Shown here: piece by piece, positions 8,322-34,061 of the stretch
How the letters are laid out: every line of letters begins with the position of its first letter
Position numbering within the stretch: position 1 is the stretch's first letter
Source of the DNA: an uncultured Gammaproteobacteria bacterium
Lineage (GTDB): Bacteria > Patescibacteriota > Patescibacteriia > UBA9570 > XYC2-FULL-38-9
Assembly: GCA_964344485.1 (NCBI GenBank)
Contig: CAYFNF010000001.1
Coordinates: 18,335 to 82,334 of the forward strand
Length of the DNA stretch: 64,000 nt
Direction of reading: 5' to 3'
Notes under the pieces: generated by a model
Database searches by the model: none
Told to the model about the DNA's origin: nothing
The model's input: only the letters and a program-made list of their open reading frames with translations
Program-made: the position numbers and the translations under genes

Positions 8322-8358
8322 CCCCCACGCCACCGCGGCGTGATCAGGGGTTTTTTTT
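8322..8358 (+). terminator. Intrinsic terminator: GC-rich hairpin (ACGCC..GGCGT core) followed by T8
   Basis: Seen directly, downstream of the island gene stop at 8300. Confidence 0.55.
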
Positions 8359-9263: not shown

Positions 9264-9342
9264 AAACTCTTCTGGTGCGTGAGGAGCACATTTTTCACAT
9301 TCAAACGGGTGTGTGTGTTTTTGTAGACATATCTACGTTCTA

Positions 9343-10818: not shown

Positions 10819-10824
10819 ATTACT

Positions 10825-11079: not shown

Positions 11080-11107
11080 ATCTCTATTGTACCAATTTTT
11101 ACTGTGA

Positions 11108-12043: not shown

Positions 12044-12070
12044 CGCGCTATAAAAACAACTACTGTTTTA

Positions 12071-12784
12071 TTATTGAGAAAGAGCTGAAATCAGTGATCG
12101 AATTTCGGTTGTAATACCCTGCATCTGCGTTCGGATTGTTTGGACTGCTGTCTTTACAGATTCTGGGCTGCTGGTATCCACACTTGATAAGGAGTCTACA
12201 TACTCTTGATGTTCTTGGATCAATGTTTGTAGGGCTGTAGTATCTGCGCCAGCGGTCTCGAGCTTTTCTACCACGGCTTCCAGTTTTGTAACAATGGTCT
12301 TTGATTTTTCTTGTATCAGAGAGATCTGCTCTTGTGTCTTTGGTGCAATCACATTTTCGCGAATCTGTTTCACACGGTTCTTATGGTTTTGTATAAACGC
12401 AAATACGCGGTCTGCAATCACGCGCAACTCTGCTGGGGCGGAGATGGAGTCTAGTGCAGTATCTTGTTCCTGGAAGAACTGAATGTCTTGTTCTAAGCGT
12501 GAAAGGATGTGATTCTGTTCATCGGTTGATAGTGCGGTATTGGATTCAATCACTGAGTACTGGTGTTGGAGTTTTTCTAACGTATCATCTACTACTGTTT
12601 GCACACGTTGCAGCGCGTTTTGGAACGATTCTTGATTTACCGGAAGGGTCTTAGGTTGTGATGCCTTCAATTCCTGGTTGATATTATTCATTGGGGCAGC
12701 ACTTGAGCAGAGTGGTAGCACAAGAAGGAAGCCAACAACCATGATGGATAACTTGATATGTAGTTGTGTTCTATTCTGTGTCAT
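12071..12784 (-). CDS. Secreted coiled-coil protein, unknown function
   Basis: Signal peptide; Q/E-rich helical content. Confidence 0.4.
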   Translation of the reverse strand: MTQNRTQLHIKLSIMVVGFLLVLPLCSSAAPMNNINQELKASQPKTLPVNQESFQNALQRVQTVVDDTLEKLQHQYSVIESNTALSTDEQNHILSRLEQDIQFFQEQDTALDSISAPAELRVIADRVFAFIQNHKNRVKQIRENVIAPKTQEQISLIQEKSKTIVTKLEAVVEKLETAGADTTALQTLIQEHQEYVDSLSSVDTSSPESVKTAVQTIRTQMQGITTEIRSLISALSQ

Positions 12785-13644
12785 ATGGTTGAGATATCTT
12801 CAATGATCGTGTTCAAATCACTGGATGGTTGGTCAAGAGAGCCTTCAAGTTGATCTACTTGCTCCAACAGATTTTCTAAATCCGCAATAGTACTTTCTAG
12901 CTCTTCTTGCAGTGATTCAATATCACTCGCGCTGCTCTCTAATCCCGCAAGGTCGATTGATGTGTCAGAATCAGTATTTGGCAGCTCAGAGTCTTGTTGA
13001 TTGACGTTGGCTATGCTTGCAGTACCTGACCCTTCATCGTCGCTTGTTTGTTCATCGGATGTTTGTTCATCAGTACCAGTGCCTTGCTCTGCAGCGGCTT
13101 CTTCAGGAGTATCCTCTGGGTTTTCTTGTAGTGCTGCGCTTGATGTTGCTGATCCAAACGCAACTACGTCTTCCTGAATGTCCTCTGTAGTGCTCGCATC
13201 TGTCACTACTGCCTCTTCAGTTGCTTTTAATGTGCTTACTGCAGGTTGTGTTCCAGTTGTGGTGTCCATTCGTTGTACAAGAACGAATATTAGCGCTGCA
13301 ACAGCTGCAACAGAGAACGATGGAATCAGTAGAATATTAAACCACTTTTTCTTTTTCGGTGCAGGCGGTTCATGTGAAGGAGTTGTGTGTTCTTGTAATA
13401 TGATTTGTTCCAGCTCTTCTTTAAAGTCGTCATCAATTTCTGAGTTTGAAGTCATGACATGGAGCTTGAGCGCGGCCTGAAACTCTGGATCATTAGAGAA
13501 TGATCGAGGAGAGCGACCTTTCTTCAGATCATTCAGCACCTGGTTGAGCTTCTCAGTTTTTTCTGGCGAGGAATGGGAAGAAAGTTCTGACTCTAGCTCA
13601 TCAGCGATGTCTTTGATATTCGGTTGTTCTGGTAGTGTCTTCAT
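12781..13644 (-). CDS. Putative anti-sigma factor (single-pass membrane protein with acidic extracytoplasmic domain)
   Basis: Immediately downstream of the ECF sigma gene with 4-nt overlap. One TM helix (IPSFSVAAVAALIFVLV), D/E/T-rich C-terminus. Confidence 0.4.
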   Translation of the reverse strand: MKTLPEQPNIKDIADELESELSSHSSPEKTEKLNQVLNDLKKGRSPRSFSNDPEFQAALKLHVMTSNSEIDDDFKEELEQIILQEHTTPSHEPPAPKKKKWFNILLIPSFSVAAVAALIFVLVQRMDTTTGTQPAVSTLKATEEAVVTDASTTEDIQEDVVAFGSATSSAALQENPEDTPEEAAAEQGTGTDEQTSDEQTSDDEGSGTASIANVNQQDSELPNTDSDTSIDLAGLESSASDIESLQEELESTIADLENLLEQVDQLEGSLDQPSSDLNTIIEDISTI

Positions 13645-13645
13645 A

Positions 13646-14212
13646 CTATTCGTTTGATTCTATGGGTCCGAGGGTTGCTGCTTTCTTCAGGGCTCGGTGC
13701 TGCAGGACCTTTGCATTGCTTATGGTGATATCCATTGCTTCAGCAGTCTCTTTAATGGAGTAGTTTTTTAGAAATCGGTACTCAAGCACTGTTCTGTAAT
13801 TATCTTTGAGTTTACTGAGCAAGTGTGCAGTCTGCTCTTCTTTAAACTGTTGATGCGCCTCTTCTTCTTCCTTGTCTTCAGCAAATTCTGGACTGGTATG
13901 AATACCAAGCACCGCATCGATATCTACTGTTGGCATCTTATACTTCTCTCTCCATAAGTCGGCGATCTTTCTTTTTGCTATTTCGTAGCACCAGTTACGG
14001 AACTTCGCTTCACCACGGAAGTTTTTCAGCCCTTTAAACGCTGCCATCATCACGTCTTGCGTCAGGTCTTCCGCATCTTCCCTGTTTCCAACTTTATAGT
14101 AGATAAAACGATAGACCTCGCGGACATGCTCTTCATATAACTGCGAAATAGCTTGTTGATTGCCTTGTTTCGCCTCTTCTATGAGCTCGTGATTTTCCAT
14201 ATGGATTTGCAC
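13646..14212 (-). CDS. ECF-type RNA polymerase sigma-70 factor
   Basis: Sigma-70 region 2 motifs (VYRFIYYKVGNREDAEDLTQDVMMAAF) and a region 4 HTH near the C-terminus. Confidence 0.75.
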   Translation of the reverse strand: MQIHMENHELIEEAKQGNQQAISQLYEEHVREVYRFIYYKVGNREDAEDLTQDVMMAAFKGLKNFRGEAKFRNWCYEIAKRKIADLWREKYKMPTVDIDAVLGIHTSPEFAEDKEEEEAHQQFKEEQTAHLLSKLKDNYRTVLEYRFLKNYSIKETAEAMDITISNAKVLQHRALKKAATLGPIESNE

Positions 14213-14312
14213 TATAAGTCAAGTACAGGTTACAGGCCGCATAGTAGCGCTATTACACAAATAGTGCAAGTAAAAAAAGGACAAGTTGACTACTGAACAA
14301 CAGCGATGAGAA

Positions 14313-15290
14313 TTATCGGATTTGCAGCAGCAGGTCGTTTAATATCGTAAAGATTTGCTTTCTTTTTTTATTCGGTTGCGGGTATCTTTGAACTGTGGCT
14401 CCTGCGATGTCAAGAAGAGTGCGTTGTGAGAAGTAGTGCAGGTCTTGTTGGACCAACCGTTGTTTCTTGCGCGAGGAGTTATTATGGTATCCACCCAGAA
14501 AGGAGAGTAGCCATTTATCAATGGTCTCTTTTGAAAAGAACGGGTGGAGCATGACAGAGGTGTGCATGAGAAATGTCGCGACGTCTAACGCAGGGTGGAA
14601 GCGCTCTGCCTCGGTGAAATCAATAACGCCGATAGTCCTGGTTGATGAGTTGAACAGTATGTTTGAAGCTTCAAAATGTCCGTGGTTGAGAACCGCATGT
14701 TCGGGCTTTGCAACGGTTCGTGCTTGTTTTCGTAGTTGCATAGCGAGCTGATGCCACACTGCGTCAAGCGTGCTTCTAGATTCTAATTTCTTTTTCAAGT
14801 GGTCGAGGAATGTCTTTTCATTTGACGCAGTGCGTTTATGGATATACGGCGCACGTGTAGAATGAATCTCTGCCAAACACTTTCCTAGCGTCTCACTATA
14901 GGTGTTCCAGAACTGAGCATTTCGTTTTGTCTCTTCCAAGGTTTTACCTTCCAGTTCAATATACAGCGCATACTGCAGCCCTGGGTTGTAGAAGATATTT
15001 CTTGGAGTGTGAAAACTTAGGACTTTTGCAGAGAGTGCATCCATGAGTTTATTGATGACTGGCTCCATATGCTTTCCTCGCACAGTCAGCTGTTTGCTCC
15101 TGTTCTCCTGAATGTATTGAATGCGATGTCGGGTTGGTAAGCTTTCATGCGCTGACAATGTACTTGGATATTCAGTTTGAACATTTTCAATCTCGGACCC
15201 TGGAAGTAGCCCGCGTTTCTGCAGCTCTTCAAATAACTCGGCCATCTGTAGCGAGTCTTGCAATGATTGTATTGTCGTGAATGAACTCAT
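14313..15290 (-). CDS. Aminoglycoside/choline-kinase-like phosphotransferase (APH family)
   Basis: HGHFEASNILF (HGD-x4-N-like catalytic loop) and IDFTEAE (DFG-like). Confidence 0.55.
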   Translation of the reverse strand: MSSFTTIQSLQDSLQMAELFEELQKRGLLPGSEIENVQTEYPSTLSAHESLPTRHRIQYIQENRSKQLTVRGKHMEPVINKLMDALSAKVLSFHTPRNIFYNPGLQYALYIELEGKTLEETKRNAQFWNTYSETLGKCLAEIHSTRAPYIHKRTASNEKTFLDHLKKKLESRSTLDAVWHQLAMQLRKQARTVAKPEHAVLNHGHFEASNILFNSSTRTIGVIDFTEAERFHPALDVATFLMHTSVMLHPFFSKETIDKWLLSFLGGYHNNSSRKKQRLVQQDLHYFSQRTLLDIAGATVQRYPQPNKKRKQIFTILNDLLLQIR

Positions 15291-17176: not shown

Positions 17177-18049
17177 ATGCAAAAAGTACGAAAAGCAGTG
17201 ATCCCAGTTGCTGGCTTAGGCACGCGCTTCTTGCCCGTGACCAAGGCTCTTCCAAAGGAGATGTTGCCCATCGTTGATAAGCCAGTGATCCAGTACATTG
17301 TAGAAGAAGCAGTGGAGTCTGGAATTGATGAGATCATATTTGTTACTTCAGAGAATAAAATTGCGATTGAAAACCATTTTGATCGTAATGCAGCACTTGA
17401 ATGTTTGCTCGAACAGAAGAAAAAGAGCAATGAATTGTCAGCAGTAAAGGATGTTGCAGAGATGGCGGAGTTTATCTTCGTTCGACAGACCGATCCTTTG
17501 GGATTGGGCCATGCAGTCTTGCAAGCAAAGGACGTTATCGGTGACGATCCATTTGTGGTATTTGGTGGTGATGATGTCGTAGAATATGAGTCTGCTCCAG
17601 CAGCAAAACAGTTGATCGATGTCTATGAACGACACAGCGATCCAGTGATTGGCGTGCTGGAAGTTCCGAAAGAAGCAGTGAATCGATATGGAATTATCGA
17701 CCCTGTAGAGGACATGGGAGAAAACGTTGCTCGTATAAAGGATATTATTGAAAAACCAGACGTGGACGTCGCTCCATCCCAATTGGGTGTGGGTGGACGG
17801 TGGCTGCTCACTCCGGATATCTTTGACCATTTAGAACAGACCAAACCTGGCGCTGGAAATGAGATTCAGTTAACCGATGCGATCAGAGAACTCATGAATC
17901 ATCGTGATGTTTATGCCAAGACCTATGACGGTATTTATCGCGATTGTGGGAACAAGACCGAGTACATTAAAGCGATGATTGCGTTTGCAGTTCGTCACGA
18001 AGAGCTTGGTCCAGCAGTCAAAGAGTATATTCAATCATTGGATGTGTAA
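17177..18049 (+). CDS. galU: UTP-glucose-1-phosphate uridylyltransferase
   Basis: AVIPVAGLGTRFLPVTKALPKEMLPIVDKPVIQY is a classic GalU N-terminus. Confidence 0.85.
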   Translation: MQKVRKAVIPVAGLGTRFLPVTKALPKEMLPIVDKPVIQYIVEEAVESGIDEIIFVTSENKIAIENHFDRNAALECLLEQKKKSNELSAVKDVAEMAEFIFVRQTDPLGLGHAVLQAKDVIGDDPFVVFGGDDVVEYESAPAAKQLIDVYERHSDPVIGVLEVPKEAVNRYGIIDPVEDMGENVARIKDIIEKPDVDVAPSQLGVGGRWLLTPDIFDHLEQTKPGAGNEIQLTDAIRELMNHRDVYAKTYDGIYRDCGNKTEYIKAMIAFAVRHEELGPAVKEYIQSLDV

Positions 18050-18053: not shown

Positions 18054-19433
18054 ATGAAGAGATTTCTTACACAGCACAAAGCACGGTCGTACTGGCTTGG
18101 AATTGTTGTGTTATTGGCAGTACTCACTACTTCAGGCGCACTATGTGGTGGGCAGAACTTAACGCCACTAGAAGCTGTCTCACTAGAGATTTGGCGCTCT
18201 GAAGATACTGAAGCTGATCTCTCTGCTGCAATGGCAGCATATGCAGGCGTATACCCACATGTATCGTTTACCTACCGGCAGTTAAAAGAAGAGGAGTACG
18301 AAGATGAGCTGTTCAAAGCATGGTCTAAGGGTGAGGGGCCGGACATTTTCTCCATTCCAAATTCGCATGTCGGGAAGTATGTAGATTTTATCACCACCAT
18401 GCCGGATGCAGTAGCATTGAAGACCGCACACATGGAGTCGAATTTCGGTAAGAAAGAAGTGGTGACTGAAGTGAACAACATTGTATTTCCAACTGCGTCG
18501 CAGTTACAAGATCAATACGTTCAAGCAGTGACCGACGATGTGGTAATTGGAGACAAGGTGTATGGACTGCCAATGAGTATTGATACGCTTGGGTTATATT
18601 ACAACCGCGAATTACTAGCAAAAGCGCAGATAGCAATCCCACCGCAGACTTGGGAAGAGTTCCGAGATGCAGTGCAGATTATGACCGAGCTTGATGATGA
18701 GCGAAATATTGTGCGTCCAGCTGCAGCACTGGGAACTGCGGAGAACGTTCCGTACTTCTTTGACATTGTTTCGGTCCTAATGATGCAGAATGGAGCAACT
18801 ATGACCTCAAAGTCTGGGCGCGTGACCTTTAATGCTGGCACTGAAGAAGGACGAAAACCTGCTGAGGAAGCGCTGGATTTCTATACCAAGTTCAGCAATC
18901 AGCAGTATAAGACCTATACATGGAATGATGAGCAGATGAATGCGCTTGAAACGTTTACGCAGGGTAATCTCGGCTTCTACTTCGGGTACTTATCGGATAA
19001 TGAAGTAATTGAAAAACGAGCGCCAAACTTGAACTACTCGTATACCTATCTTCCGCAGATCGATCCGAATAATTTTACCAATTATCCTCGGTACGCTGTG
19101 GAGACTGTTCATATCGGTTGTGAGAATCCAGAGCATGCATGGAATTTTATTCGTTTCATTGCTTCCGAGCAACAGGTGGGGGCGTATCTTGAGAGCACGT
19201 TCCGTGTCTCTGCGTTGAAATCAATAGTTAATGACCAGCAAACAGATCCAGAACGCGGAGTATTTGCCCAACAAGCACTGACCGCAAAAACGTGGTATCA
19301 TGGATTTGATCCTGGCGCAGCAGCTGCAGCGTTTCAAGAAATGATTGATACTACCAATGAGCACACTACACCGATTGAGGAAGTCATCAATCTCGCGGTA
19401 TCGAAGGTGCGGCTTACCGTCCAAGAAGAATAG
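18054..19433 (+). CDS. ABC transporter substrate-binding protein (family 1, carbohydrate-type); orphan
   Basis: Signal anchor plus SBP_bac_1-like features. No permease or ATPase is adjacent. Confidence 0.55.
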   Translation: MKRFLTQHKARSYWLGIVVLLAVLTTSGALCGGQNLTPLEAVSLEIWRSEDTEADLSAAMAAYAGVYPHVSFTYRQLKEEEYEDELFKAWSKGEGPDIFSIPNSHVGKYVDFITTMPDAVALKTAHMESNFGKKEVVTEVNNIVFPTASQLQDQYVQAVTDDVVIGDKVYGLPMSIDTLGLYYNRELLAKAQIAIPPQTWEEFRDAVQIMTELDDERNIVRPAAALGTAENVPYFFDIVSVLMMQNGATMTSKSGRVTFNAGTEEGRKPAEEALDFYTKFSNQQYKTYTWNDEQMNALETFTQGNLGFYFGYLSDNEVIEKRAPNLNYSYTYLPQIDPNNFTNYPRYAVETVHIGCENPEHAWNFIRFIASEQQVGAYLESTFRVSALKSIVNDQQTDPERGVFAQQALTAKTWYHGFDPGAAAAAFQEMIDTTNEHTTPIEEVINLAVSKVRLTVQEE

Positions 19434-19444
19434 TGAATCATCAT

Positions 19445-20122
19445 ATGAAAAAACAACTCCTTACATTTCTCATCGCTGGAATTCTACTGAGCCTTCCGTT
19501 TGTTGTTGATGCAGCGCTGCTTCCATCATGTACGACCAGCGGTAATTGTCACACCTGTGACTTCTTAGTGTTTATCGATAACCTAGCGAGTGAGATTCTT
19601 CGATACATCGGAGCGATTATAATCCTAGTGTTTGTGATCGGTGGTGTATTTTGGATTATCTCTGGGGGAAGCGCTGAACGAGTGAAGAAAGGCCAGACCA
19701 TTATGGTAGGTGCATTGATCGGACTAGGATTTGTATTTGGAGCATGGATGATAGTACATATGATCATTGCAGCGTTTGTTGCTCCGACCACGGATACTGG
19801 CGCAACTGATTGGTCAAAAGTGTCATTATTTGATAGCGGACAGAATTGGTATGAATTCTGTGTTGAAGGAACCGCGCCGAGTGGTGCGACTACTAATTGT
19901 AAAGATGAGTCAGACGGTACTGAGTGTCAGGCAGACTCTTGTACTGCAGTGGGTGTTTGTGTCTGTAAATCCGACACGTGCATCTCTTTATGTCAGTATC
20001 ATGCAGAAGAAGCAGGGCAGTCTGGTTCTTGTGTGGATGAAGTCGGCGATTGTTCCGGGGTGACAGATTCATCTACTGGTCTCTGTCCAGGCGAAACTAT
20101 ATGTTGCCGTGTTGATAGTTAA
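19445..20122 (+). CDS. VirB2/TrbC-like pilin paralog with Cys-rich C-terminal extension
   Basis: Signal peptide, two TM helices flanking the GGSAERVKKGQ loop (shared with 5 neighbours), then ~90 aa with about 20 Cys. Confidence 0.55.
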   Translation: MKKQLLTFLIAGILLSLPFVVDAALLPSCTTSGNCHTCDFLVFIDNLASEILRYIGAIIILVFVIGGVFWIISGGSAERVKKGQTIMVGALIGLGFVFGAWMIVHMIIAAFVAPTTDTGATDWSKVSLFDSGQNWYEFCVEGTAPSGATTNCKDESDGTECQADSCTAVGVCVCKSDTCISLCQYHAEEAGQSGSCVDEVGDCSGVTDSSTGLCPGETICCRVDS

Positions 20123-20143
20123 TAATTACTTACTATATATCCT

Positions 20144-20491
20144 ATGAAGAAATTACAGATAAAAACCTTTGGCACATCACTTCTCTTATGGTCTGTGTTG
20201 GCCATGCCAGTATTAGCAGACACTATGATCGAGAATCCGCTACCGTCATCTGATCCAAATGAGATCATCGCGAATATTGTTTCTGTGATCTTGGGCGTGG
20301 TTGGAGCGATTGCGCTGATGTTCTTTGTATGGGGCGGAGTTCTTATGTTGATCTCTGGAGGTAGTCCTGAAAAGACAAAAAAGGGACGAGACACGTTGAT
20401 GTGGGCAACACTCGGATTGATTATTATCTTCGGCAGCTTCGGTATTGTACGCGCAATCTTTCAAGCAATGGGCGGCGAAAGCATCGTATAA
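20144..20491 (+). CDS. VirB2/TrbC-like pilin paralog
   Basis: Signal peptide, TM-GGSPEKTKKGRD-TM architecture. Confidence 0.55.
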   Translation: MKKLQIKTFGTSLLLWSVLAMPVLADTMIENPLPSSDPNEIIANIVSVILGVVGAIALMFFVWGGVLMLISGGSPEKTKKGRDTLMWATLGLIIIFGSFGIVRAIFQAMGGESIV

Positions 20492-20502
20492 CTATTCCAA
20501 CA

Positions 20503-20531
20503 ATAAAACACCCGACGAACGGGTGTTTTTA
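20503..20531. terminator. Bidirectional intrinsic terminator (ACACCCG-ACGAA-CGGGTGT flanked by A and T runs)
   Basis: Perfect 7-bp stem; lies between convergent pilin genes. Confidence 0.65.
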
Positions 20532-20543
20532 TATTTCTATTGT

Positions 20544-20966
20544 TTATGCAAACAATGCAGAGTCTAAGTAGGAGACGATTCCTAGTGCAGAGAGAATGAT
20601 GATCGCACCGATCACTGCCCATTGAATCACGTCCTTTCCTTTTTTAATCTGGGTAGATTTCCCTGCGTAATCGCCAACTCCTAGAATACCGCCACCACTC
20701 ATAATTAGATATCCACCGTAGACGATGAACAACACCACTACTACACCCAGTACTTGAAGTAGAGTTTTGATAATGTTCAGTGCGACAGTTACTGGGTCAT
20801 CTGTTGGCATGAAGCCAGAAAAGTATCCTGAAGGGAAGTAGTCAGATGGGCTTGCAGCCAGAGCACTTAATGGAAAGCAGGCGATCAAAGAACAGACAGC
20901 AAGGATACCGCCCCATAATAGAAATGCGGTATGTTTTTTTTGCAAAGAGATCTGTTGTAGTCTCAT
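20544..20966 (-). CDS. VirB2/TrbC-like pilin paralog
   Basis: Same architecture (loop GGGILGVGDYAGKSTQIKKGKD). Confidence 0.5.
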   Translation of the reverse strand: MRLQQISLQKKHTAFLLWGGILAVCSLIACFPLSALAASPSDYFPSGYFSGFMPTDDPVTVALNIIKTLLQVLGVVVVLFIVYGGYLIMSGGGILGVGDYAGKSTQIKKGKDVIQWAVIGAIIILSALGIVSYLDSALFA

Positions 20967-20986
20967 ATATACTTAATGAATGTTGA

Positions 20987-21388
20987 TTACACTGGGACTG
21001 CTCCTTGGCCGGTCGCGCTTTCGATCACACTAAAGACATATATTGCAATTCCGTACGATGAAAGGATAATAAGCAAACCGAGTACTGCTGCTTGTAGGAT
21101 ACCGCGAGCTTTCTTAATTTTCTCTTCATTTCCAGCAGCAAACATCCAGGTGAACCCAGCGTAGACGATTAATCCAATTGCGATAACACTTAAAAAACCG
21201 AGAATAGCTGCGATAATGTTCGCTGCAGTAACTAACGGGCTCTGTGCACTCATTCCAGTAGTTGATGAGATCAAGTTTTGCATAGTTGCTGGTAGTAGAC
21301 TGCCAGCAAAGACAGCATCTGCGTATCCAAAAAGCATACAGCCGCTGACTGTGACGATGCTTGCGATTTTAGAAAGTACGTGTTTCAT
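20987..21388 (-). CDS. VirB2/TrbC-like pilin paralog
   Basis: TM-AAGNEEKIKKARG-TM. Confidence 0.5.
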   Translation of the reverse strand: MKHVLSKIASIVTVSGCMLFGYADAVFAGSLLPATMQNLISSTTGMSAQSPLVTAANIIAAILGFLSVIAIGLIVYAGFTWMFAAGNEEKIKKARGILQAAVLGLLIILSSYGIAIYVFSVIESATGQGAVPV

Positions 21389-21406
21389 ACGTATAAAAGA
21401 AATTGT

Positions 21407-21817
21407 TTATTTTGTTGCAGCTTCGATGACCTCGATCCAGAACAAAGTAATCCCCCATGCAGCCATGATGATCAGTAAACCAATTGCTCCGTTCAATAGA
21501 ATGCCTTTTGCTTTCTTTACCTTCTCTTCATTACCACCAGAGAACATCCAGGTGAAGCCACCGTACAGTACAATGATCATCGCAATGATTGCCAGAATAC
21601 CGAGCACGAGGTTTAGTATAAATGCAGCGATATCGATCGGATCATTCGAACCCAGGCCTGTTGCAGCACCGACATCCGTACCTGAAGCGTTCATAATATG
21701 TGATTGAGCGAAGGTCAGTACCGGCACTGTGGTTCCTACAAGAACTGTAAAAAAAGTAGCCACATGTTTTGGTACTGTTTTTATGTGTTGCGACATTGAA
21801 GAAAGCGCAATTTTCAT
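21407..21817 (-). CDS. VirB2/TrbC-like pilin paralog
   Basis: TM-SGGNEEKVKKAKG-TM. Confidence 0.5.
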   Translation of the reverse strand: MKIALSSMSQHIKTVPKHVATFFTVLVGTTVPVLTFAQSHIMNASGTDVGAATGLGSNDPIDIAAFILNLVLGILAIIAMIIVLYGGFTWMFSGGNEEKVKKAKGILLNGAIGLLIIMAAWGITLFWIEVIEAATK

Positions 21818-21929
21818 ATGTTTTTACAATAGAAATAGTTCATTTGGATTATACCAGATGGATCTGATTTTGTAAATACCTGAGCGTGAAATCTACGACA
21901 AACCATAGGAGATTTTTCAACATTCTGGA

Positions 21930-21958
21930 TTGACTTTCGGGTAAAAGTGTGTTAGAGT
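21930..21958 (+). promoter_or_regulatory. Sigma70-like promoter TTGACT-N17-TAGAGT upstream of the pilin gene at 22003, followed by SD AAAGGAGG
   Basis: Hexamers and spacing read directly from the sequence. Confidence 0.45.
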
Positions 21959-22002
21959 GGTGCACATAACAAGTAAACACTCATCGAAAGGAGGTGACAT
22001 AC

Positions 22003-22359
22003 ATGAAAAAATTAGCAACAACAGGGCTAACCGCTCTTGGATGGTTAGCAGCAAGTCCAGCATTCGCTCAAGTAAACACCAGTATCAGTATTACCGGATA
22101 CGGTACTAATGATCCAGAGACCATTGTCATTAACCTATTGAACTGGGTACTTGGTATTCTCGCATTAATCGCAGTCGTATTGATCCTTATCGGTGGTTTC
22201 CGATGGATGACTGCAGCAGGTAACGAAGAAAAGGTAGAATCTGCGAAGAAATTACTCGTCGCAGCAGTTATCGGACTCGTTATCATTATGGCAGCTTGGG
22301 GAATCTCACTGTACGCAGTAGGAATCCTCGCAAGCGCTACAAATGCACAAGTTGTATAA
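22003..22359 (+). CDS. VirB2/TrbC-like pilin paralog
   Basis: TM-AAGNEEKVESAKK-TM. The ATG at 22003 is preceded by an SD; the ORF track GTG at 21994 is less likely. Confidence 0.55.
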   Translation: MKKLATTGLTALGWLAASPAFAQVNTSISITGYGTNDPETIVINLLNWVLGILALIAVVLILIGGFRWMTAAGNEEKVESAKKLLVAAVIGLVIIMAAWGISLYAVGILASATNAQVV

Positions 22360-22397
22360 CATTCTATAAGCGAATTCAATTCGCGTTTGCAACATAC

Positions 22398-22426
22398 AGC
22401 CCGCCGAGATGGCGGGCTTTTCGTTT
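22398..22426 (+). terminator. Intrinsic terminator GCCCGCC-GAGAT-GGCGGGC followed by a T run; an adjacent palindrome GCGAATTCAATTCGC lies at 22370-22384
   Basis: Perfect 7-bp GC stem followed by TTTTCGTTT. Confidence 0.7.
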
Positions 22427-22428
22427 GA

Positions 22429-24069
22429 CTATTTTTTTGTGGAATATATTTGGTACTCGTCGTTCGTGAGTGCGACCGGGTAGCGTTGCGAGAAGAATTG
22501 ATCGTCTATCGTGAAAACCTCTCGTTCATACGGGCCGATGACTATAAACGAAATATTATATTTTTTTATTAATTCCTCCGCGTTCTCGCTTCCACTATAT
22601 ATATTTATAATATCCTGTTCGAGTTCATTAAAGAAGAAGCCGTATGTCCCGTTCCACTTACGGTTCCCCAATAGTATCTGCCTACCAGTGAGTGACGGTA
22701 CCCAGTGATTGTAGCGATCTGAAGTAAGCACAATATCAGTAGGCTCGGAGAAAGTTTTAAACTCTTCAGCAAGTGCAATTTCCTGAGTGGTCCATAAGAG
22801 CATGGACCGATCACTTGGAGTGCGTGCCATATGATAGAGGTCAGCAGCGCCAGTTGCAGTCATAACAAAGAATAGTACTACCACGAGAAATTTTATTGCA
22901 ATATTCTTTTGTTTCCATAGACGCTGCATATAGAGAAGAACAGGAATGATGAATATGCAGTAACTCCATGTAAATAGTTTTGAGTTATCCCACACCCATG
23001 GTTGAAAGCTGAAGATGTTCGCGAGGAGGAAAATGAGAATACCCCCAACCACCAATGGGTTCTTATACTGTTTGGTTCGCCAGATTGCAATGATGCTCAG
23101 CGGTAGAAAGAATCCCCAGTTAATGAACCAGAACCAAAGCACGTTCATGTCAGCAATACTTGTAGAAGACATCCACCCGAGTTGTAAGCGGATCATCTGG
23201 TAGTCAATCTGCCCTTGGATTAATACAAAGTTAATAAAGAAAAGCGGTATAGCAGCTGACACGGCGTAGATCGCCCATTTCTCCCAGTGCGCACGAGAGA
23301 ATAATGCGAGCACTACGCAGAACAGAACGAGCGCGAGAGTGGAGTGCGGATGAATCAGGAATAAGCATGCAGAGATGAGCCCTAAGGCAACCAAGCGCAT
23401 GAATGTCGCGTCTTTGAAGTTATTCTTAGTCCATCGGTAGAGCAGGTATAAGATGATCAGGGCAATTGGGAACCCTAGCAGCATAGCGCGTTGTGGTAAG
23501 AATTCTGAAGTAACGATATTAGTCCATGCGCAGCAACGAAAATCCCGCACTGGAAACATCAACCCAAATGCTCCGTTCATTAAAAATAGGGAGAGCGCAA
23601 AGAACGAAGCGACTACGGATTTTAAGAAGCGATTATAGAAGGCGAGCAGCAAGAATAGCAGCACCAAGGTCAGGATAATCGAGGGGATGATCACTGCTGC
23701 AATGGAGTCGATTCCAAATCGAATCAGAATACCAGAGAGTGCATCAGCAACGAACGGATAGGTGAAGTGCTTTTGTATATGAATTGGATGTGTTTGAAAC
23801 CAGTTCGTTACGGGTCGGTACGCGAATACTGCGATGTAGGTAAAGTGAGCAGCCCAGTCAGTAACGTACGGAGTAGTGGCGCTTTCGACACCTCGAGCGG
23901 TTTTCATGATCACCCGTGGCCACAGGTAGAAGAAGTACACCCCCCAAGTACAGAGCACCGCACAACACCCCCAAAACATTGGAGGGAGTGCACGACATCT
24001 TTGCCCCCAGGTCTTGGTCGCGCCAGTTTTTTTATTGGATTGCTGCGTGGCTTGTTGTGTCGACTTCAT
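22429..24069 (-). CDS. GT-C-fold membrane glycosyltransferase-like protein (PMT/ArnT-like)
   Basis: More than 10 TM helices, loop motifs and a C-terminal soluble domain typical of GT39/GT83-like enzymes. Confidence 0.5.
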   Translation of the reverse strand: MKSTQQATQQSNKKTGATKTWGQRCRALPPMFWGCCAVLCTWGVYFFYLWPRVIMKTARGVESATTPYVTDWAAHFTYIAVFAYRPVTNWFQTHPIHIQKHFTYPFVADALSGILIRFGIDSIAAVIIPSIILTLVLLFLLLAFYNRFLKSVVASFFALSLFLMNGAFGLMFPVRDFRCCAWTNIVTSEFLPQRAMLLGFPIALIILYLLYRWTKNNFKDATFMRLVALGLISACLFLIHPHSTLALVLFCVVLALFSRAHWEKWAIYAVSAAIPLFFINFVLIQGQIDYQMIRLQLGWMSSTSIADMNVLWFWFINWGFFLPLSIIAIWRTKQYKNPLVVGGILIFLLANIFSFQPWVWDNSKLFTWSYCIFIIPVLLYMQRLWKQKNIAIKFLVVVLFFVMTATGAADLYHMARTPSDRSMLLWTTQEIALAEEFKTFSEPTDIVLTSDRYNHWVPSLTGRQILLGNRKWNGTYGFFFNELEQDIINIYSGSENAEELIKKYNISFIVIGPYEREVFTIDDQFFSQRYPVALTNDEYQIYSTKK

Positions 24070-24117: not shown

Positions 24118-26217
24118 ATGAAATTTGTTTTTCAGGAGATCTGCTTTATACTGATACATATGCTTCAACAGTTACGAACAATAGCAATGCGACCTGTGCT
24201 ACGTATCCCGCTCATAGTATGGGCCATGGTAGCAGTATATGTGGTTGTAATGATAGTAGTCTGCGCGTTTCAGTGGACTCATTACATTTATGGAGGGTAT
24301 GATTTAGCAATTTTTGATCAGGTGTTTTGGAACAGTGCACACGGGCGATGGTTTGAGTTTTCGTTTAGTCCGTACTCCTATTTAGTTGACCATCGTTCGT
24401 TGCTCATCCCGATTCTCGTACCGTTGTATTGGATTATTCCGCATCCCATGACACTGCTAGTGTTACAGACGTTGGTTGTTGCGTCTGGTGCTCTAGCGCT
24501 GTACTTTCTTTCACGAAAAATTTTAGGCCACCTCTCTCCGCAGCCGTTTATAAGCGTTGTGATCGTTGCGCTTTACTTGATACAGCCAACCGTGCACGCA
24601 ATGAATTTGTTTGAGTTCCACATGTTGCCGTTTATTATTCCGTTGTCTTTTTTATTATGGCTCGCAGTAGAGTATAGAAAATGGCCAGTAGTGATATGTT
24701 TGTTTATTGTCATACTGTTGTTACGCGAAGATACCGCGCTTATGACAGCGGGTATTGGATTGTTACTCATTCTCACCAAACAGAAGGCGGAGCCACGCAC
24801 GCGATGGATCGTTGGCGCAGCGATGATGATAGTGAGCATGTGTTGGTTTGTGTTTATGATGTGGCTCGGCATGTTCTTTGCGCCAGACGGAACGTCGAAG
24901 TTTATTATCTTCTATGAATGGATGGGGAATACACCAGTAGAAGCTGCGCAATTTATTGTGCAGCATCCGTTACAGACTCTGGCGACGTTGGGAGATTACG
25001 ATCATAGCATTGTGGTGTTGTTCTTGTTTGCAACCGTGGGCTTCTTACCGCTCTTTCGCATTCGATATTTTATCCCAGCGGTTATTCAGCTCACACTATT
25101 CTTGTTGATCAATCAGCACATGATGCCGTCTGTATTAAAGAGCCACTACCCCGCGGTGTTTGTTCCATGGCTATGTATCGGCGCACTCTATGGATTCAGT
25201 CATGCGCACGAGAAGTTTCAGCGCTATATGAAAAAGCGACCAGCTCTGAAAGACGCTGGCGCTCCAATGGTGCTTGTTATTCTGATCTGTACTATTATTG
25301 TCGCACAGTCAGCGGCTATTGGGCCGATATGGGGTACGATTCACAATTTTAATTTGATGAAAGACCGAAATATAGAGCAGTATGATGTAGTAGTTCAAAT
25401 GGTTGGGCCAGAGGATTCAGTGATAACGACCTCTCGATTGTATTCCCACTTTGCCCAGCGTGAAAAGCTCACGCCCGCGTTACACATCTTTACTGGACGA
25501 AAACATTTTTCTGATGTTCCGTACCCGCTACCTGAAGATGTGGATTGGATTATACTTGAACAGGAGCTTATTTTACGTTGGGGAATCTACTTACGGTTAG
25601 TTGATCGGTCTGGAGCAGGAGAACGACTGCAAAGTATTATAGAACAGAGCGAGTTGGTGCCAGTCATGGCAACAGAAGACCTGGTGGTGTTTGGACGTCC
25701 ATCAGCAGGAATGCCGACAGTACCATTAGTTGAAACTTCAAATGAACCGCTAGATAATCCAGTGGATGTTACTGCTAATCAAACGATTCACTTCGATAGT
25801 TGGGAGTATGAAGAGACAGATGCAACGAGCGGGGTGCTATCACTTCTGTTTGACCGAACAAATAAGCAGTCAGTGATTAAGAATGACCAGCACATTCAAC
25901 TGACGTGGAAAGATGAGCGCGGGCAGGTGATTCGCGAAAAGATATTCGCGCTTGGGTTTGGGCTGCACCCGACGTATAATTGGGAGAAGGGAACACAGGA
26001 GCATTGGTTAATTCACCAGCCAATAGTGCAACCAGCAAACGCAGCGTCAGTTGAGTTGCATATTGGCCCGCTGGATTCAAAGTTTGGACCGTTTTTTACA
26101 CTATGGGTTGCTGACCCGATATTAAAAGAAGGGGATACGATCTCTGTTCCTCTCCGATCATTAGCACCATTAGATCAAGATCACTCAGTAGTCGCTTCTT
26201 CAGGTGCGGCATTTTGA
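24118..26217 (+). CDS. Large polytopic membrane protein with C-terminal extracytoplasmic domain (DUF2079/GT-C-like)
   Basis: GGYDLAIFDQVFWN motif near the N-terminus, multiple TM helices, ~300-aa soluble C-terminal region. Confidence 0.45.
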   Translation: MKFVFQEICFILIHMLQQLRTIAMRPVLRIPLIVWAMVAVYVVVMIVVCAFQWTHYIYGGYDLAIFDQVFWNSAHGRWFEFSFSPYSYLVDHRSLLIPILVPLYWIIPHPMTLLVLQTLVVASGALALYFLSRKILGHLSPQPFISVVIVALYLIQPTVHAMNLFEFHMLPFIIPLSFLLWLAVEYRKWPVVICLFIVILLLREDTALMTAGIGLLLILTKQKAEPRTRWIVGAAMMIVSMCWFVFMMWLGMFFAPDGTSKFIIFYEWMGNTPVEAAQFIVQHPLQTLATLGDYDHSIVVLFLFATVGFLPLFRIRYFIPAVIQLTLFLLINQHMMPSVLKSHYPAVFVPWLCIGALYGFSHAHEKFQRYMKKRPALKDAGAPMVLVILICTIIVAQSAAIGPIWGTIHNFNLMKDRNIEQYDVVVQMVGPEDSVITTSRLYSHFAQREKLTPALHIFTGRKHFSDVPYPLPEDVDWIILEQELILRWGIYLRLVDRSGAGERLQSIIEQSELVPVMATEDLVVFGRPSAGMPTVPLVETSNEPLDNPVDVTANQTIHFDSWEYEETDATSGVLSLLFDRTNKQSVIKNDQHIQLTWKDERGQVIREKIFALGFGLHPTYNWEKGTQEHWLIHQPIVQPANAASVELHIGPLDSKFGPFFTLWVADPILKEGDTISVPLRSLAPLDQDHSVVASSGAAF

Positions 26218-27815
26218 TGCGCATCTTTGCGCGGTACGCGATAGACAGTCACTTCATCGTCAGTATACGCTTCTTTGAATCGTCCGTCAGCAACGATATT
26301 CTTTTTCATCGCAGTATGTTCGTGGTCGATAATAATGAACCGGGCATTAAAGTCTCCTTGAATGATCTCTAGTAGTTGATCTTCTTGTTTGCCGATCGTG
26401 ATATTCACCCATTTCCAGTAGAGGTCTCTATCATAGTTGTACATAAACGTTGGGTCCAGCCCTACAATGTAGCGAGCACGCGCTGCATTATAAAAGAGCA
26501 TTGGGAAATCGTCCCAGTCGTTGTGGAACACTACATCTCCTTTTGTGGCGTGGTCTCTCAGCCACTCCCCGAGTTGGTCAAAGTGATATACTGAGATACC
26601 CCGATGCAGCGATTCATGCGTTTTACGAGCTTCAGTGATCATGATCCCTGGAATGATAAATACAAAATAGACCAGCACTGCAGCGGTGATTCCTTGTAGG
26701 AACGTTTCGCCGATGATACTTTTTCTTGCTGAACTGATCGCGTGTTTCACTTGATCAAGCGCGCCACCCGCGTGAAGCGTTAGTGCAACAAAAATATAAC
26801 CCCATGGAATATAGTATTCAATATACCGTTGAGACTTTAGTGTAAAGACAAAGAAAATGATGGTCATGATAAGCGCAGTGATAGATGCAGCAGTCTGTTT
26901 CTTTATTTTTACAATAAAGACAATAATACTAATGATGATGAGCGACGACAGAATGATCGGAGAAGTGATAAGATTTTCGATCTCTGTTGGATACCATTCA
27001 CCTCCAACTCCGATGACCTCTTGATAATTGATTAAACCAATCTGCACCACTTGCTGCCAATAGAACTTTAAGTGATGCGGGAACGCTGGGTGGATAAGAA
27101 GGCCGGCAACGACACCAGCGCACGCAGCAAAGAACGGTGTGAAGTACGACCACAGTTGTCTTAATGACGGTAGTTTCTTACGGTCTTTTAGCATTGCTAG
27201 CAACCACGTCACTATTGAGTATATTCCAGCGACCACGAGCAAGAGAATGAATCCACCGTAGCTCCAGACGTAGAAGAATCCCAAGAGTATTAGAAGCCGA
27301 TGTTTTTTATGCGCTAATAATAGAAAGGCGGTGACTAAGAACAGGAATCCTACACTCGGGGCTTTCGCTAGCCCCATACGAAACGCAAATGAGGAGGTGA
27401 AGAGTAAGAAGAGCGTAAAGAGTGTTGCGTACTTAACGTGCAGAGACCGGAGCAAGATGTAGAACACCGTCAGAGTGGATGCAGCAAGGAGAACAGTCGC
27501 AACCTTCATTCCAATGAATTCATCCAAGAAGAGAATAAACGGGATCAGGAAGACGTGATACAGGAAATGATGATCGACAAATGCATCTTTTAGAGTGGTG
27601 AACTGCAGCCAGGGGAATTCAACAATTGCTTGCTGTCGTTTCATCATGATTTTTGTGATCTTCAAGTGGTAGAATGAGTCCGGATCAGAAAATACTGGCC
27701 CAGAACTCCATATTGCAAACGCAGTTATGGCAATGATAAATATCACGCACGCTCCAATCCATTCATGTTCGAGCCAGAACTTTTTTATTTGTAATGTTTT
27801 AGATTTTCGATACAT
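26181..27815 (-). CDS. GT-C-fold membrane glycosyltransferase-like protein
   Basis: Polytopic membrane protein plus C-terminal soluble domain. Start chosen at MYRKSK (27815). The ORF track extension to 27935 runs through a structured leader. Confidence 0.5.
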   Translation of the reverse strand: MYRKSKTLQIKKFWLEHEWIGACVIFIIAITAFAIWSSGPVFSDPDSFYHLKITKIMMKRQQAIVEFPWLQFTTLKDAFVDHHFLYHVFLIPFILFLDEFIGMKVATVLLAASTLTVFYILLRSLHVKYATLFTLFLLFTSSFAFRMGLAKAPSVGFLFLVTAFLLLAHKKHRLLILLGFFYVWSYGGFILLLVVAGIYSIVTWLLAMLKDRKKLPSLRQLWSYFTPFFAACAGVVAGLLIHPAFPHHLKFYWQQVVQIGLINYQEVIGVGGEWYPTEIENLITSPIILSSLIIISIIVFIVKIKKQTAASITALIMTIIFFVFTLKSQRYIEYYIPWGYIFVALTLHAGGALDQVKHAISSARKSIIGETFLQGITAAVLVYFVFIIPGIMITEARKTHESLHRGISVYHFDQLGEWLRDHATKGDVVFHNDWDDFPMLFYNAARARYIVGLDPTFMYNYDRDLYWKWVNITIGKQEDQLLEIIQGDFNARFIIIDHEHTAMKKNIVADGRFKEAYTDDEVTVYRVPRKDAHQNAAPEEATTE

Positions 27816-27931
27816 AGAATACCCCATATATTGAAATCTCCCGCTATCAAGCATGGGGCTAGCGGGAGTTTTCCCGCTAAACCTCCGTGGTGCGGGAAGC
27901 ACCTTGACCTTACCAAGGTCATTTTTCCCTG
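27816..27931 (-). promoter_or_regulatory. Structured 5' leader with mutually exclusive hairpins (TAGCGGGA / TCCCGCTA / TAGCGGGA) and possible SD sequestration
   Basis: On the minus strand TCCCGCTA can pair with either of two flanking TAGCGGGA copies (8 bp each). CCCCAT is complementary to ATGGGG adjacent to the start codon. An additional TGACCTT-GGT-AAGGTCA hairpin is present. Confidence 0.4.
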
Positions 27932-28996
27932 TCAAGCATTCTTCAACTCGTCTTTTAGAAAGTTGACATTTGGGATCGGTGATGGGTCTAGGTTGTTCAG
28001 AATTGCTAGGTATAACGAGATATAACTACCGATTAACAGCAGCTCTAATGCTTGATGTAGTTTATTCTTTCCCTGTAGTGAAAGTGTTGTTGATGGGATG
28101 TTGTTGTTTTGTACTACTTGATCAGTAATCTTGTGCCGCAGCTGATTTCTTTCGTGATAGAGATCGCTTGTAATGAACACAAAAAGTAATCGGTCTAAAG
28201 ACTCGCGTGCATGTACCAGCCCTTCAATTAAATGGTGGTTCATTTCTGGTATCGGAAAGCGCACAGCAAACTGTTTTGCGTTTTCGTTGATCTGATTTGT
28301 GAATACATGCGTGCTTCCTTCCAGGAATTCTGAGCTAACAAGTACTGGGAGCGTTTCATGCATTTTTTGTGCGAGCTGTTTTGCGGCGTTGTCATCGAGT
28401 GCAACTTCTGCTCCGTGCTGTTCGTGCAAGGAAGCGATATAGGCCGTTGCTTCTGCGATGTCATTATCTGTTAATGACAACACTCCAAGCGATGATAGCG
28501 CACCACAGATGCCCATAATCGAGTATCCTACTGCCATGCGCGGTTGCTTGCTTGGATTGTACTGTGGGTCAAAGATATACGCAGGAACGTTGTGCTCTTC
28601 AGCGAATTGTTGTAAGTCGCCACCTGTAGTCACTACAAATACTTTGTTGGTTTTGTCTAAAATTGTTTTACTCGCATTCACTGTCTCTTCGGTTGTTCCA
28701 GAGTAACTGGAGAGAATTGCCAGCGTTCGTTCATTTACTGTTCCTGGAATGTCGTAGTCATTAACGATTTGAATCGGAACAGTAATTTGATCTGAGAGCA
28801 GTGCTTGAATGACATGAATTCCCAGCGCTGATCCTCCCATGCCAAAGAGAACGATACGATCGATTTCGCTATAGTGTTCTGGGAAGTGAATTTGTGTTGA
28901 TGCAGACCACGCATCGGAACATTGCTTATCCAAGACCTCAATAGAGGAAAGCATGTTCTGTGAGTCTAGTTGTTGGATGTTCTTTTTTTCTAACAT
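27932..28996 (-). CDS. SIS-domain bifunctional phosphoglucose/phosphomannose isomerase-like protein
   Basis: LFGMGGSALGIHV SIS motif; ~350 aa, typical of the archaeal-type PGI/PMI family. Confidence 0.65.
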   Translation of the reverse strand: MLEKKNIQQLDSQNMLSSIEVLDKQCSDAWSASTQIHFPEHYSEIDRIVLFGMGGSALGIHVIQALLSDQITVPIQIVNDYDIPGTVNERTLAILSSYSGTTEETVNASKTILDKTNKVFVVTTGGDLQQFAEEHNVPAYIFDPQYNPSKQPRMAVGYSIMGICGALSSLGVLSLTDNDIAEATAYIASLHEQHGAEVALDDNAAKQLAQKMHETLPVLVSSEFLEGSTHVFTNQINENAKQFAVRFPIPEMNHHLIEGLVHARESLDRLLFVFITSDLYHERNQLRHKITDQVVQNNNIPSTTLSLQGKNKLHQALELLLIGSYISLYLAILNNLDPSPIPNVNFLKDELKNA

Positions 28997-30521: not shown

Positions 30522-31010
30522 ATGAAGTGCTTGGGTATAGATCCAGGAATTGAGATAACAGGATTCGGTATATTAGAAGCGAATGGTTCTTCACAGCAAC
30601 TGATAGAGTACGGGGTGATCCGTACTTCTAAAGATGATAGTACGCCAGACCGTTTGCTTCAGCTGCACACAGATCTGATGCAAGTGCTACAGAAGCATCC
30701 AGACATTGCAGTAGCTGGAGTTGAGGAATTATTCTTTGCTAAGAATGCAAAGTCAGCATTCCAAGTTGGACAGGCGCGAGGAGTGATTCTACTCACTCTG
30801 GAGATGCATCACATCCTCATTCGAGAGGTGAAACCAGTTGAAGTAAAAGCTGCAATTGTCGGCTCAGGAAATGCAGATAAAAAGGAGGTGCAGAAAATGG
30901 TTCAATTAACATTTAATTTGGATACGCCACCACAACCTGACGATGCCGCAGATGCAATCGCAATCGCACTCTGCATGGCGTTTGATCAAGAATTGAAACA
31001 ACAACTATGA
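30522..31010 (+). CDS. ruvC: Crossover junction endodeoxyribonuclease RuvC
   Basis: LGIDPG N-terminus and DDAADAIAIALC C-terminal catalytic region. Confidence 0.9.
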   Translation: MKCLGIDPGIEITGFGILEANGSSQQLIEYGVIRTSKDDSTPDRLLQLHTDLMQVLQKHPDIAVAGVEELFFAKNAKSAFQVGQARGVILLTLEMHHILIREVKPVEVKAAIVGSGNADKKEVQKMVQLTFNLDTPPQPDDAADAIAIALCMAFDQELKQQL

Positions 31011-34049: not shown

Positions 34050-34061
34050 TACAATACCACT

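Follow-up and report, generated by a model that had tools for sequence, protein, structure and literature searches.

What does an array of pilin-like genes do where no secretion machine is encoded beside it? The question is raised by a stretch of contig CAYFNF010000001.1 (below, the window means this whole stretch of 64,000 nucleotides), in which six paralogous small open reading frames (ORFs), here called g1 to g6, lie on both strands within positions 19433-22430 and span 19445..22359. A reading made earlier from the letters of the DNA, which we call the sequence-only reading, had described them as VirB2/TrbC-like pilins and had proposed a pilus of the kind built by type IV secretion systems (T4SSs), used for host or cell contact. 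We hold it probable, with some reservation, that the array encodes Sec-exported hairpins which build a T4SS-type pilus or a wall-spanning filament, g6 being the major subunit and g1 a specialized one that bears a binding domain; our confidence goes no higher because the dependence on a T4SS is drawn entirely from family homology. The array itself is ordinary for Patescibacteria and of a kind already published. The g1-type subfamily of cysteine-rich pilins coupled to a binding protein is apparently undescribed in the accessible literature, and three features look new: the conserved frame of the array, the coupling of the g1 subfamily, and the ectodomains, either a rare 13-Cys module or giant Ig-like ones.

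Family and architecture of the six pilins

The six genes are the following.

19445..20122, plus strand: g1, binding-protein-coupled VirB2-like pilin of 225 aa with 16 Cys (alternative GTG start at 19433)
20144..20491, plus strand: g2, short pilin of 115 aa with a counterpart at the same position in all close relatives
20544..20966, minus strand: g3, pilin paralog of 140 aa in the variable block
20987..21388, minus strand: g4, pilin paralog of 133 aa in the variable block
21407..21817, minus strand: g5, pilin paralog of 136 aa, leading the minus-strand unit
22003..22359, plus strand: g6, most conserved pilin, 118 aa, monocistronic (its ORF opens at GTG 21994)

Pairwise identities of 25-55% bear out the earlier description of six paralogous genes of pilin type (g5 is 55% identical to g6; g4 is 47% identical to g5 and 43% to g6). 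Each product begins like a signal peptide, with a basic and then a hydrophobic stretch that ends in an AxA-type site; the cleavage sites were read by eye, and the helices were taken from hydropathy segments. A variable, Ser/Thr-rich mature N-terminal stretch of 15-35 residues follows, and after it two hydrophobic segments of about 30 residues each, with a short basic loop between them. This loop is GGNEEKVKKAKG in g5, AGNEEKIKKARG in g4, AGNEEKVESAKK in g6, GGSPEKTKKGRD in g2, and GGSAERVKKGQT in g1, and in g3, where nine residues are inserted directly before it, it is AGKSTQIKKGKD. Hence the order of signal peptide, helix, basic loop, and helix given by the sequence-only reading holds for all six genes. 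Aligning the paralogs, as that reading had advised, shows the hairpin to be the most conserved part (28-51% identity), whereas identity falls to 2-13% in the mature N-terminal segment and to 11-18% in the C-terminal tail. Neither near-identical DNA cassettes nor invertible or recombination repeats were found among the paralogs, the best DNA repeat being 72% identical over 99 nt.

All six products match PF18895 (T4SS_pilin; E 1.5e-15 to 5.7e-5), and four of them exceed its curated cut-off of 26.6 bits (g6 57.5, g2 51.1, g5 42.9, and g3 31.1). The TrbC/VirB2 family PF04956, with a cut-off of 27.9 bits, is passed by g6 (30.4) and g2 (28.8); g3 (16.5) and g5 (13.9) score below it, and g1 and g4 have no match. 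The assignment to TrbC/VirB2-like proteins made earlier is thus upheld at the level of these families. The NCBIfam VirB2 model (PRK13857) gave 15.4 bits against a cut-off of 103, and the best NCBIfam match of g2, g4, g5, and g6 is NF045849 (Mbov_0395 pilin-like; E 3e-10 to 4e-5). These matches cover almost the entire 80-position model, with all scores under its cut-off of 40 bits (g6 39.6, g2 35.4, g5 31.0, and g4 23.1). One relative carries the database name "pilin". In a model of g1 predicted with AlphaFold 2 (AF2), the expected helical hairpin is present at a predicted local distance difference test score (pLDDT) of 68-79, with 66 for the model as a whole. Its top Foldseek matches in the PDB, which are not significant, are subunits of the T-pilus and of an archaeal conjugative pilus (8dfu and 8exh; E 1.9-2.8, target TM-score 0.46-0.58).

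Other assignments were tried and rejected. A holin or another small membrane-protein (DUF) family, which the sequence-only reading had named as the competing possibility, does not appear among the Pfam and NCBIfam matches up to E 1, and the neighboring genes are housekeeping ones. Type IV pilins (PilA/ComGC) were rejected because the products have Sec-type signals and two hydrophobic helices; the class III motif G|F/M-T-L-x-E and type IV pilin Pfam matches were likewise not found. As to a plasmid or phage origin, a tblastn search of g6 against 72,556 plasmids returned no match.

The array is laid out as three transcription units, the first apparently made up of galU, a binding-protein gene, g1, and g2, the second of g5, g4, and g3, and the third of g6 alone. 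Successive gaps in the first unit are 4, 11, and 21 nt, and the 185 nt between g5 and g6 are the sole long intergenic gap of the array. The two leading genes and the putative signals are as follows.

17177..18049, plus strand: galU-type UDP-glucose pyrophosphorylase (Pfam NTP_transferase, E 3e-32), apparently leading the unit that closes with g1 and g2
18054..19433, plus strand: orphan MalE-like solute-binding protein (SBP_bac_8, E 1.3e-24; SBP_bac_1, E 6.3e-20)
20505..20529, both strands: bidirectional intrinsic-terminator hairpin between the convergent g2 and g3, from the terminator scan
21876..21848, minus strand: promoter-like TTTACA-N17-TATAAT with TG extension (11/12 matches), facing g5-g4-g3
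21930..21958, plus strand: promoter-like TTGACT-N17-TAGAGT with TG extension, facing g6 only
22398..22418, plus strand: intrinsic-terminator hairpin after g6, a 9-bp stem with 7 GC pairs and a T run behind it

The hairpin between g2 and g3 (folding energies of -15.5 and -16.6 kcal/mol for its two strands, with z-scores of -4.4 and -3.9) closes the unit that starts with galU, and g5-g4-g3 run into it from the opposite side. That after g6 folds at -18.1 kcal/mol (z -3.9), and terminator-like sites altogether exceed chance (11 found, 2.8 expected). Of the strong terminators said earlier to bound the array, the one at the right end stands; the scan gave none at the left edge, where g1 begins 11 nt past the stop of the binding-protein gene, and the other hairpin is internal. 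Promoter predictions are weak evidence, since the scan gave 8 sites in total where chance alone would give 8.4, and the TTGACT-N17-TAGAGT site, formerly taken for a promoter dedicated to the array, serves g6 alone. Its -35 element (CTTGA) and extended -10 element (TGnTAnAGT) are kept in the related loci L002 and L003 around an otherwise diverged spacer, and L004 retains the -35 CTTGA. The ATG of g6 at 22003 lies 9 nt downstream of the ribosome site AAAGGAGG, and the g6 ribosome site GAAAGGAGGTGA is kept in L003 and L004.

A conserved frame, its cysteine-rich first gene, and the adjoining genes

Relatives of the array were collected by scanning one genome per bacterial or archaeal species (GTDB species representatives) with a profile of g4, g5, and g6, these three being used because all six together align too poorly to serve as a seed. 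This gave 79 loci (numbered here with L), the closest of which come from metagenome-assembled genomes of Candidatus Kerfeldbacteria and other ABY1; as the best match is 79% identical, the set does not include the source species itself. Judged from these matches, the source of the window is a Kerfeldbacteria-like member of class ABY1, Patescibacteria. Many contigs with pilin arrays are titled "uncultured Gammaproteobacteria bacterium" (e.g., L002, L006, L008, L009, and L012), one "Bdellovibrionales", and one "Candidatus Binatia"; these titles look like placeholder or wrong labels.

A hidden Markov model (HMM) built from the six paralogs recognized 464 pilin ORFs in the 79 loci, 68 of which contain 2-13 pilin genes. 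A common layout recurs, with a long Cys-rich and a short pilin gene on the plus strand, one to eight pilin genes on the minus strand, and a single plus-strand pilin gene at the end; it was found in L002-L004, L006, L009, L010, L012, and L014, and independently in L081, L083, and L084. Within this frame, g6 shares 78, 78, and 66% identity with the closing gene of L002, L003, and L004, respectively, g2 is 42-54% identical to the second gene of the closest loci (53-54% in L002, L003, and L006), and g1 pairs with their first gene at 35-36%. The minus-strand genes g3-g5 have no clean orthologs in the relatives, and the copy number of their block varies from one to eight. By this comparison the array looks like a set of specialized subunits combined with a block of variable copy number, unlike a cassette system for antigenic variation, which is disfavored because the orthologs are stable and near-identical cassettes and invertible repeats are absent. 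Recombinational cassettes, for which a repeat search was made, were rejected, and the antigenic diversification envisaged by the sequence-only reading is not favored on the same grounds. In three of the loci, dnaA lies 6-9 kb from the pilin array (L026 3262..4617, L036 2188..3576, and L043 880..2235), which echoes a published remark that some Patescibacteria have T4SS components close to their replication origin.

The first gene of the array differs from the others by a C-terminal extension.

19781..20119, plus strand: C-terminal extension of g1, ~110 aa, composed of a flexible linker of ~35 aa and a core of ~80 aa with 13 Cys

The extension announced by the sequence-only reading is real, with ~110 rather than ~90 aa, and the cysteine count needs correction from ~20 to 16 in the whole protein, of which three (LLPSCTTSGNCHTCD) precede helix 1 and 13 belong to the extension. 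In the AF2 model the core has pLDDT 63-86 and the linker below 50; neither a Pfam family nor a solved fold was matched by the extension. The positive-inside rule predicts an extracellular position for it. The 3+13 split recurs in 21 homologs, the total being 16 in 20 of the 21 and 18 in L004, and it suggests that g1 may contain eight disulfides, because an even total of 16 Cys is divided between two external segments. No disulfide oxidoreductase of the thioredoxin type with CxxC was found within the window.

A profile of the 13-Cys module retrieved only 18 clusters among 1.84 billion representative proteins, and in full-length matches the module always stands C-terminal to a pilin-sized N-terminal part. 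In L002 it is present in three tandem copies, and the extensions in L016, L078, and L039 contain 35-66 cysteines. Giant proteins were also found in which a PF18895 domain comes first and is followed by Big_5, Big_7, TIG, He_PIG, and DUF4215 domains, namely, at 9914..19417 of L023 (3167 aa) and at 6846..9893 (1015 aa) and 9947..14647 (1566 aa) of L037, with 32-116 Cys. From their domain order, these giants are predicted to be pilin-anchored, adhesin-like proteins, and the 13-Cys module is, by the same kind of comparison, a swappable ectodomain. Such fusions to tandem Cys modules or to Ig-like domains of adhesin type lend support to the earlier suggestion of a disulfide-rich adhesin or tip.

The gene preceding g1 is also part of the pattern. 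Both family scores of the binding protein (SBP_bac_8 and SBP_bac_1) pass their cut-offs, the protein has an N-terminal hydrophobic anchor or signal, and its solved relatives are sugar- and maltodextrin-binding proteins. No permease or ATPase of an ABC transporter was recognized among the neighbors checked in the window and in three related loci. Across ABY1, 37 related loci (L002-L079) have a pilin gene immediately downstream of a binding-protein gene, at a spacing of -52 to +60 nt, mostly -7 to +12 and often with an overlap of a few bases, and the coupled pair occurs even where the main array sits 5 kb away. Among the top ten cross-locus matches of the coupled pilins, 87% are themselves coupled pilins, compared with 8% in the background and 1.4% for uncoupled pilins. 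By these similarities the coupled, g1-type pilins form a distinct orthologous subfamily. The coupling is not mentioned in the published descriptions of T4SS pilins or elsewhere in the accessible literature. Further upstream, L081 (7312..8553), L083 (7371..8573), and L084 have at the galU position a UDPGP pyrophosphorylase of family PF01704, which is unrelated to the PF00483 type. The UDP-sugar pyrophosphorylase before the binding-protein gene looks like a case of non-orthologous replacement at a fixed position (window, L081, L083, and L084).

On the right-hand side, the array adjoins polytopic membrane proteins.

22429..24069, minus strand: 546-aa polytopic membrane protein adjoining the array, with a distant link to the DUF2079 superfamily
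24118..26217, plus strand: DUF2079 membrane protein (Pfam DUF2079, E 9e-55)
26181..27935, minus strand: 584-aa membrane protein of cluster c5, linked by hhalign to cluster c1

The first of them has no match in NCBIfam or the PDB, nor in Pfam at E-values up to 5. Membrane proteins that flank the arrays of L002-L080 fall into clusters c1, c5, c12, and c18, and profile comparison with hhalign links the protein at 22429..24069 to c18 (probability 97%), c18 to c5 (96%), c5 to DUF2079 (94%), and c1 to c5 (99%). The array directly abuts DUF2079-linked membrane proteins in 44 related loci, in two different arrangements, as well as in the window; by cluster, the direct neighbors are DUF2079 proteins on the right-hand side in 10 loci, the c5 family in nine, and c1 in 25 more. 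A GT-C or other glycosyltransferase nature of the flanking proteins is our assumption, which draws on the one 94% hhalign link and on the Pfam clan of DUF2079. Together with the UDP-sugar pyrophosphorylase, these proteins give hints of a glycosylation of the pilins or of the envelope. One flanking membrane-protein cluster adjoins a GT2 glycosyltransferase.

Pilus subunits or envelope anchors

If the products are subunits of a T4SS-type pilus or filament, cleavage of the signal peptide would leave a membrane-embedded hairpin whose two ends face outward and whose basic loop faces inward. Genes in another part of the genome would encode a VirB4/VirB6-type machine of the monoderm class, which would extract the hairpins and polymerize them into a pilus or wall-spanning filament that reaches the host cell. 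The major subunit would be g6, because no other copy is as conserved and because a promoter and a terminator of its own accompany its strong ribosome-binding site, and g2 to g5 would be minor or alternative subunits. For g1, a role as a low-copy subunit or membrane anchor may be envisaged, in which it displays a domain knotted by eight disulfides for binding and possibly works with the co-transcribed sugar-binding protein.

The closest precedents are found in Patescibacteria themselves. VirB2-like pilins were reported in 1,948 VirB4-carrying assemblies (Quinonero-Coronel et al., 2025, PMC12102498), and 441 arrays of 2-11 VirB2-like genes, with a mean identity of 25%, in 383 Patescibacteria assemblies (PMC12102498). 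The array described here agrees with these in family (PF18895), in the combination of a signal peptide, two helices, and a basic loop, and in its chromosomal location; its six copies are within the published range, and its identities of 25-55% stand beside a mean of 25% and a maximum of 54% in the published arrays. Those arrays are most abundant in Microgenomatia and Saccharimonadia, whereas this one comes from ABY1, and they were described without mention of a conserved frame, of Cys-rich or Ig-like extensions, or of DUF2079-like neighbors. In Southlakia epibionticum, the one species tested, a series of predicted pilins encoded in the T4SS cluster proved essential (Wang et al., 2023, PMC10633639; PMC12857230), as did the T4SS-like system (PMC11665869); that array is situated inside the cluster, whereas the one studied here is neither next to virB4 nor in a T4SS cluster. 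A 2025 review considers the Patescibacteria systems unique among monoderms in their potential for conjugative pili (PMC12857230), and the function of the T4SS-like system of Patescibacteria has been called completely unknown (PMC11665869).

More distant systems share the subunit but not its setting. The VirB2/TrbC/TraA pilins of diderms (T-pilus, F-pilus) have the same small hairpin, long signal peptide, and lumen-facing basic loop; here the host is a monoderm, there is no adjacent virB operon, six paralogs take the place of one gene, and no tip protein of VirB5 type was seen in the window. We know of no classical VirB2 with an ectodomain of ~110 aa. The proteins Mbov_0395 and ICE_MMCAP2_0565 of Mycoplasma integrative and conjugative elements (ICEs) provide the best NCBIfam match, and their hosts are likewise wall-poor or monoderm; the scores, however, stay under the cut-off, and there is no conjugative-element context, relaxase, or coupling protein here. 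According to the published view, the monoderm MPF-FATA class is without VirB2 homologs. The score of g6 is 0.4 bits short of the cut-off for the Mycoplasma ICE pilin-like model, a relationship that may merit a phylogeny. With pilus tip proteins and adhesins (VirB5, or type IV minor pilins with large C-terminal domains) g1 has a functional analogy only, as a single specialized subunit gene that heads the array and carries an ectodomain of binding type. It has no sequence or fold relation to them, it contains the full VirB2-like hairpin, and the class III signal peptide of type IV pilins is absent from it.

Several observations weigh against a T4SS-type pilus or filament, the first being the lack of linkage to a T4SS. 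In agreement with the sequence-only reading, no gene for VirB4, VirB6, VirD4, or another T4SS component was found in the window among 56 ORFs compared with Pfam (the six pilins plus a further 50, which comprise most but not all ORFs of at least 150 aa). Nor was a T4SS ATPase or channel gene found within 10 kb of about 80 related pilin loci, where the neighbors of 79 loci were clustered, the recurrent clusters compared with Pfam, and Walker-A proteins of at least 450 aa examined. This search yielded only housekeeping genes (SMC, ComM-like Mg-chelatase, DnaA, IF-2, FtsH, PolA, P-type ATPase, and tRNA synthetases), and no T4SS gene stands beside the lone pilin gene of L077, a locus on a closed Kerfeldbacteria chromosome. 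The T4SS-like pilus proposed earlier has family homology as its only link to a T4SS. Furthermore, g1 (24.5 bits, E 2.9e-5) and g4 (23.6 bits, E 5.7e-5) score just under the PF18895 cut-off; g4 is kept in the family because it is 43-47% identical to g5 and g6, and g1 because of its paralogy and because its orthologs have precomputed PF18895 matches. No sequence-related solved structure was found for these pilins, the fold matches to conjugative pilins are non-significant (E about 2), and the AF2 models are of moderate confidence (pLDDT 66 and 61). An appendage of 110 residues per subunit is hard to pack in a helical filament of VirB2 type, and any place of g1 in a pilus is conjecture. For PF18895 proteins in general, assembly into a pilus has been described only as a possibility (PMC12857230, PMC10633639). 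On the other side, VirB4 is present in seven of nine Kerfeldbacteria assemblies read from Table S1 of PMC12102498, an indirect indication for the source of the window. The T4SS dependence of the array is what we infer from these comparisons of sequence.

In an alternative that we consider rather unlikely, the hairpins are independent of a T4SS and belong to an envelope or nutrient-capture module, for which they provide membrane anchors or a docking platform. The operon of pyrophosphorylase, binding protein, and g1-type pilin would then constitute, with the DUF2079-like proteins, a surface-glycan or uptake apparatus, and the hairpin would tether the Cys module, the Ig-like domains, and perhaps the binding protein. 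The coupling in 37 loci with its own pilin subfamily, the DUF2079-superfamily proteins adjoining arrays in 44 loci in two arrangements, the two non-homologous UDP-sugar pyrophosphorylases at one position, and the giant proteins that use the pilin domain as an N-terminal anchor are all consistent with it, as is the absence of T4SS genes near any of these arrays. However, g2 to g6 expose only ~15-35 residues and have no ectodomain, so that as monomers they would anchor nothing, and many divergent short copies better fit the subunits of a filament. In other Patescibacteria the family is found inside T4SS clusters and is essential there, the shared neighbors could be synteny inherited within one class, and the glycosyltransferase nature of the flanking proteins is assumed from one hhalign link and the Pfam clan of DUF2079.

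The number of copies could instead serve mainly for surface variation, with pilins swapped or co-expressed against host defenses, phages, or different host strains. The analogy is with the VirB2 paralogs of Bartonella and Anaplasma, in which divergent copies also stand side by side and vary in their exposed parts (PMC12102498), and for which such a role was proposed; the idea also appears in the published discussion of the Patescibacteria arrays (PMC12102498). Here too the exposed N-terminal segment and the C-terminal tail are the least identical regions, and the minus-strand block ranges from one to eight copies between relatives. Yet the Bartonella and Anaplasma copies lie in or beside the virB loci of diderm animal pathogens, whereas the present array is detached from such loci and contains stable positional orthologs (g1, g2, and g6). 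As there are also no silent near-identical cassettes and no invertible or recombination repeats, and as the layout suggests constitutive promoters and not a switch, surface variation as the main purpose of the copies seems quite unlikely.

It is highly improbable that the cysteines of g1 bind a metal (zinc or an iron-sulfur cluster) and that the extension is a redox or metal-handling domain. The density of 13 Cys in about 83 residues and a CxC motif would suit such a domain, and anoxic groundwater, a frequent habitat of Patescibacteria, is less favorable to disulfides. Against this stand the predicted extracellular location of the extension, the even total of 16 Cys in 20 of the 21 homologs with its 3+13 division between two external segments, the single histidine, the lack of regular ferredoxin or zinc-finger spacing, and the lack of a metal-binding Pfam match.

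Returning to the pilus or filament, we add a doubtful but specific extension of it for ABY1, namely, that the VirB2-like hairpin might be a general mount for binding domains on a surface filament or membrane. The g1 type, coupled to the orphan sugar-binding protein, could then form the end of the structure that recognizes the host or captures a ligand, a role analogous to that of the VirB5 tip protein, which is unreported among the T4SS components of these systems, and the UDP-sugar pyrophosphorylase and DUF2079-like proteins might glycosylate the subunits. If the binding protein indeed docks on a g1-type pilin, a T4SS-type filament would be linked to the acquisition of nutrients from the host.

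Patescibacteria account for much of the diversity of bacteria, and they apparently live attached to other microbes. As leads for products at the site of host contact, the candidate major subunit g6, the variable middle block, and the g1 subfamily may be useful, and the comparison of loci raises a testable doubt on the T4SS dependence of such arrays in ABY1.

Other genes of the window

Three further regions of the window drew attention. In a plus-strand run at 31007..47036, a PKD-domain protein with 7TM_transglut, FemAB, and Mur-ligase-like proteins are found together with ATP-grasp enzymes (ATPgrasp_ST fused to a Zn-protease domain, RimK-like, and YheCD-like). This composition suggests a cluster for peptide ligation or cell-wall modification; the start of the run is syntenic with L081 and L083. 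An island at ~50500..56000, next to lexA, has 54-60% GC compared with ~44% elsewhere, and its ORFs overlap on both strands. Among these are an ORF of 499 aa with a Rossmann-type N-terminus and one of 443 aa for an MFS/POT-like transporter; five island ORFs scanned gave no Pfam matches, and the island may have been acquired horizontally. Finally, 56661..59618 encodes a subtilase of 985 aa in which a fervidolysin-type prodomain is combined with fn3 and FG-GAP domains; an M23 peptidase is its neighbor (55902..56399), and the two may be enzymes that degrade the host cell wall or act in surface processing.

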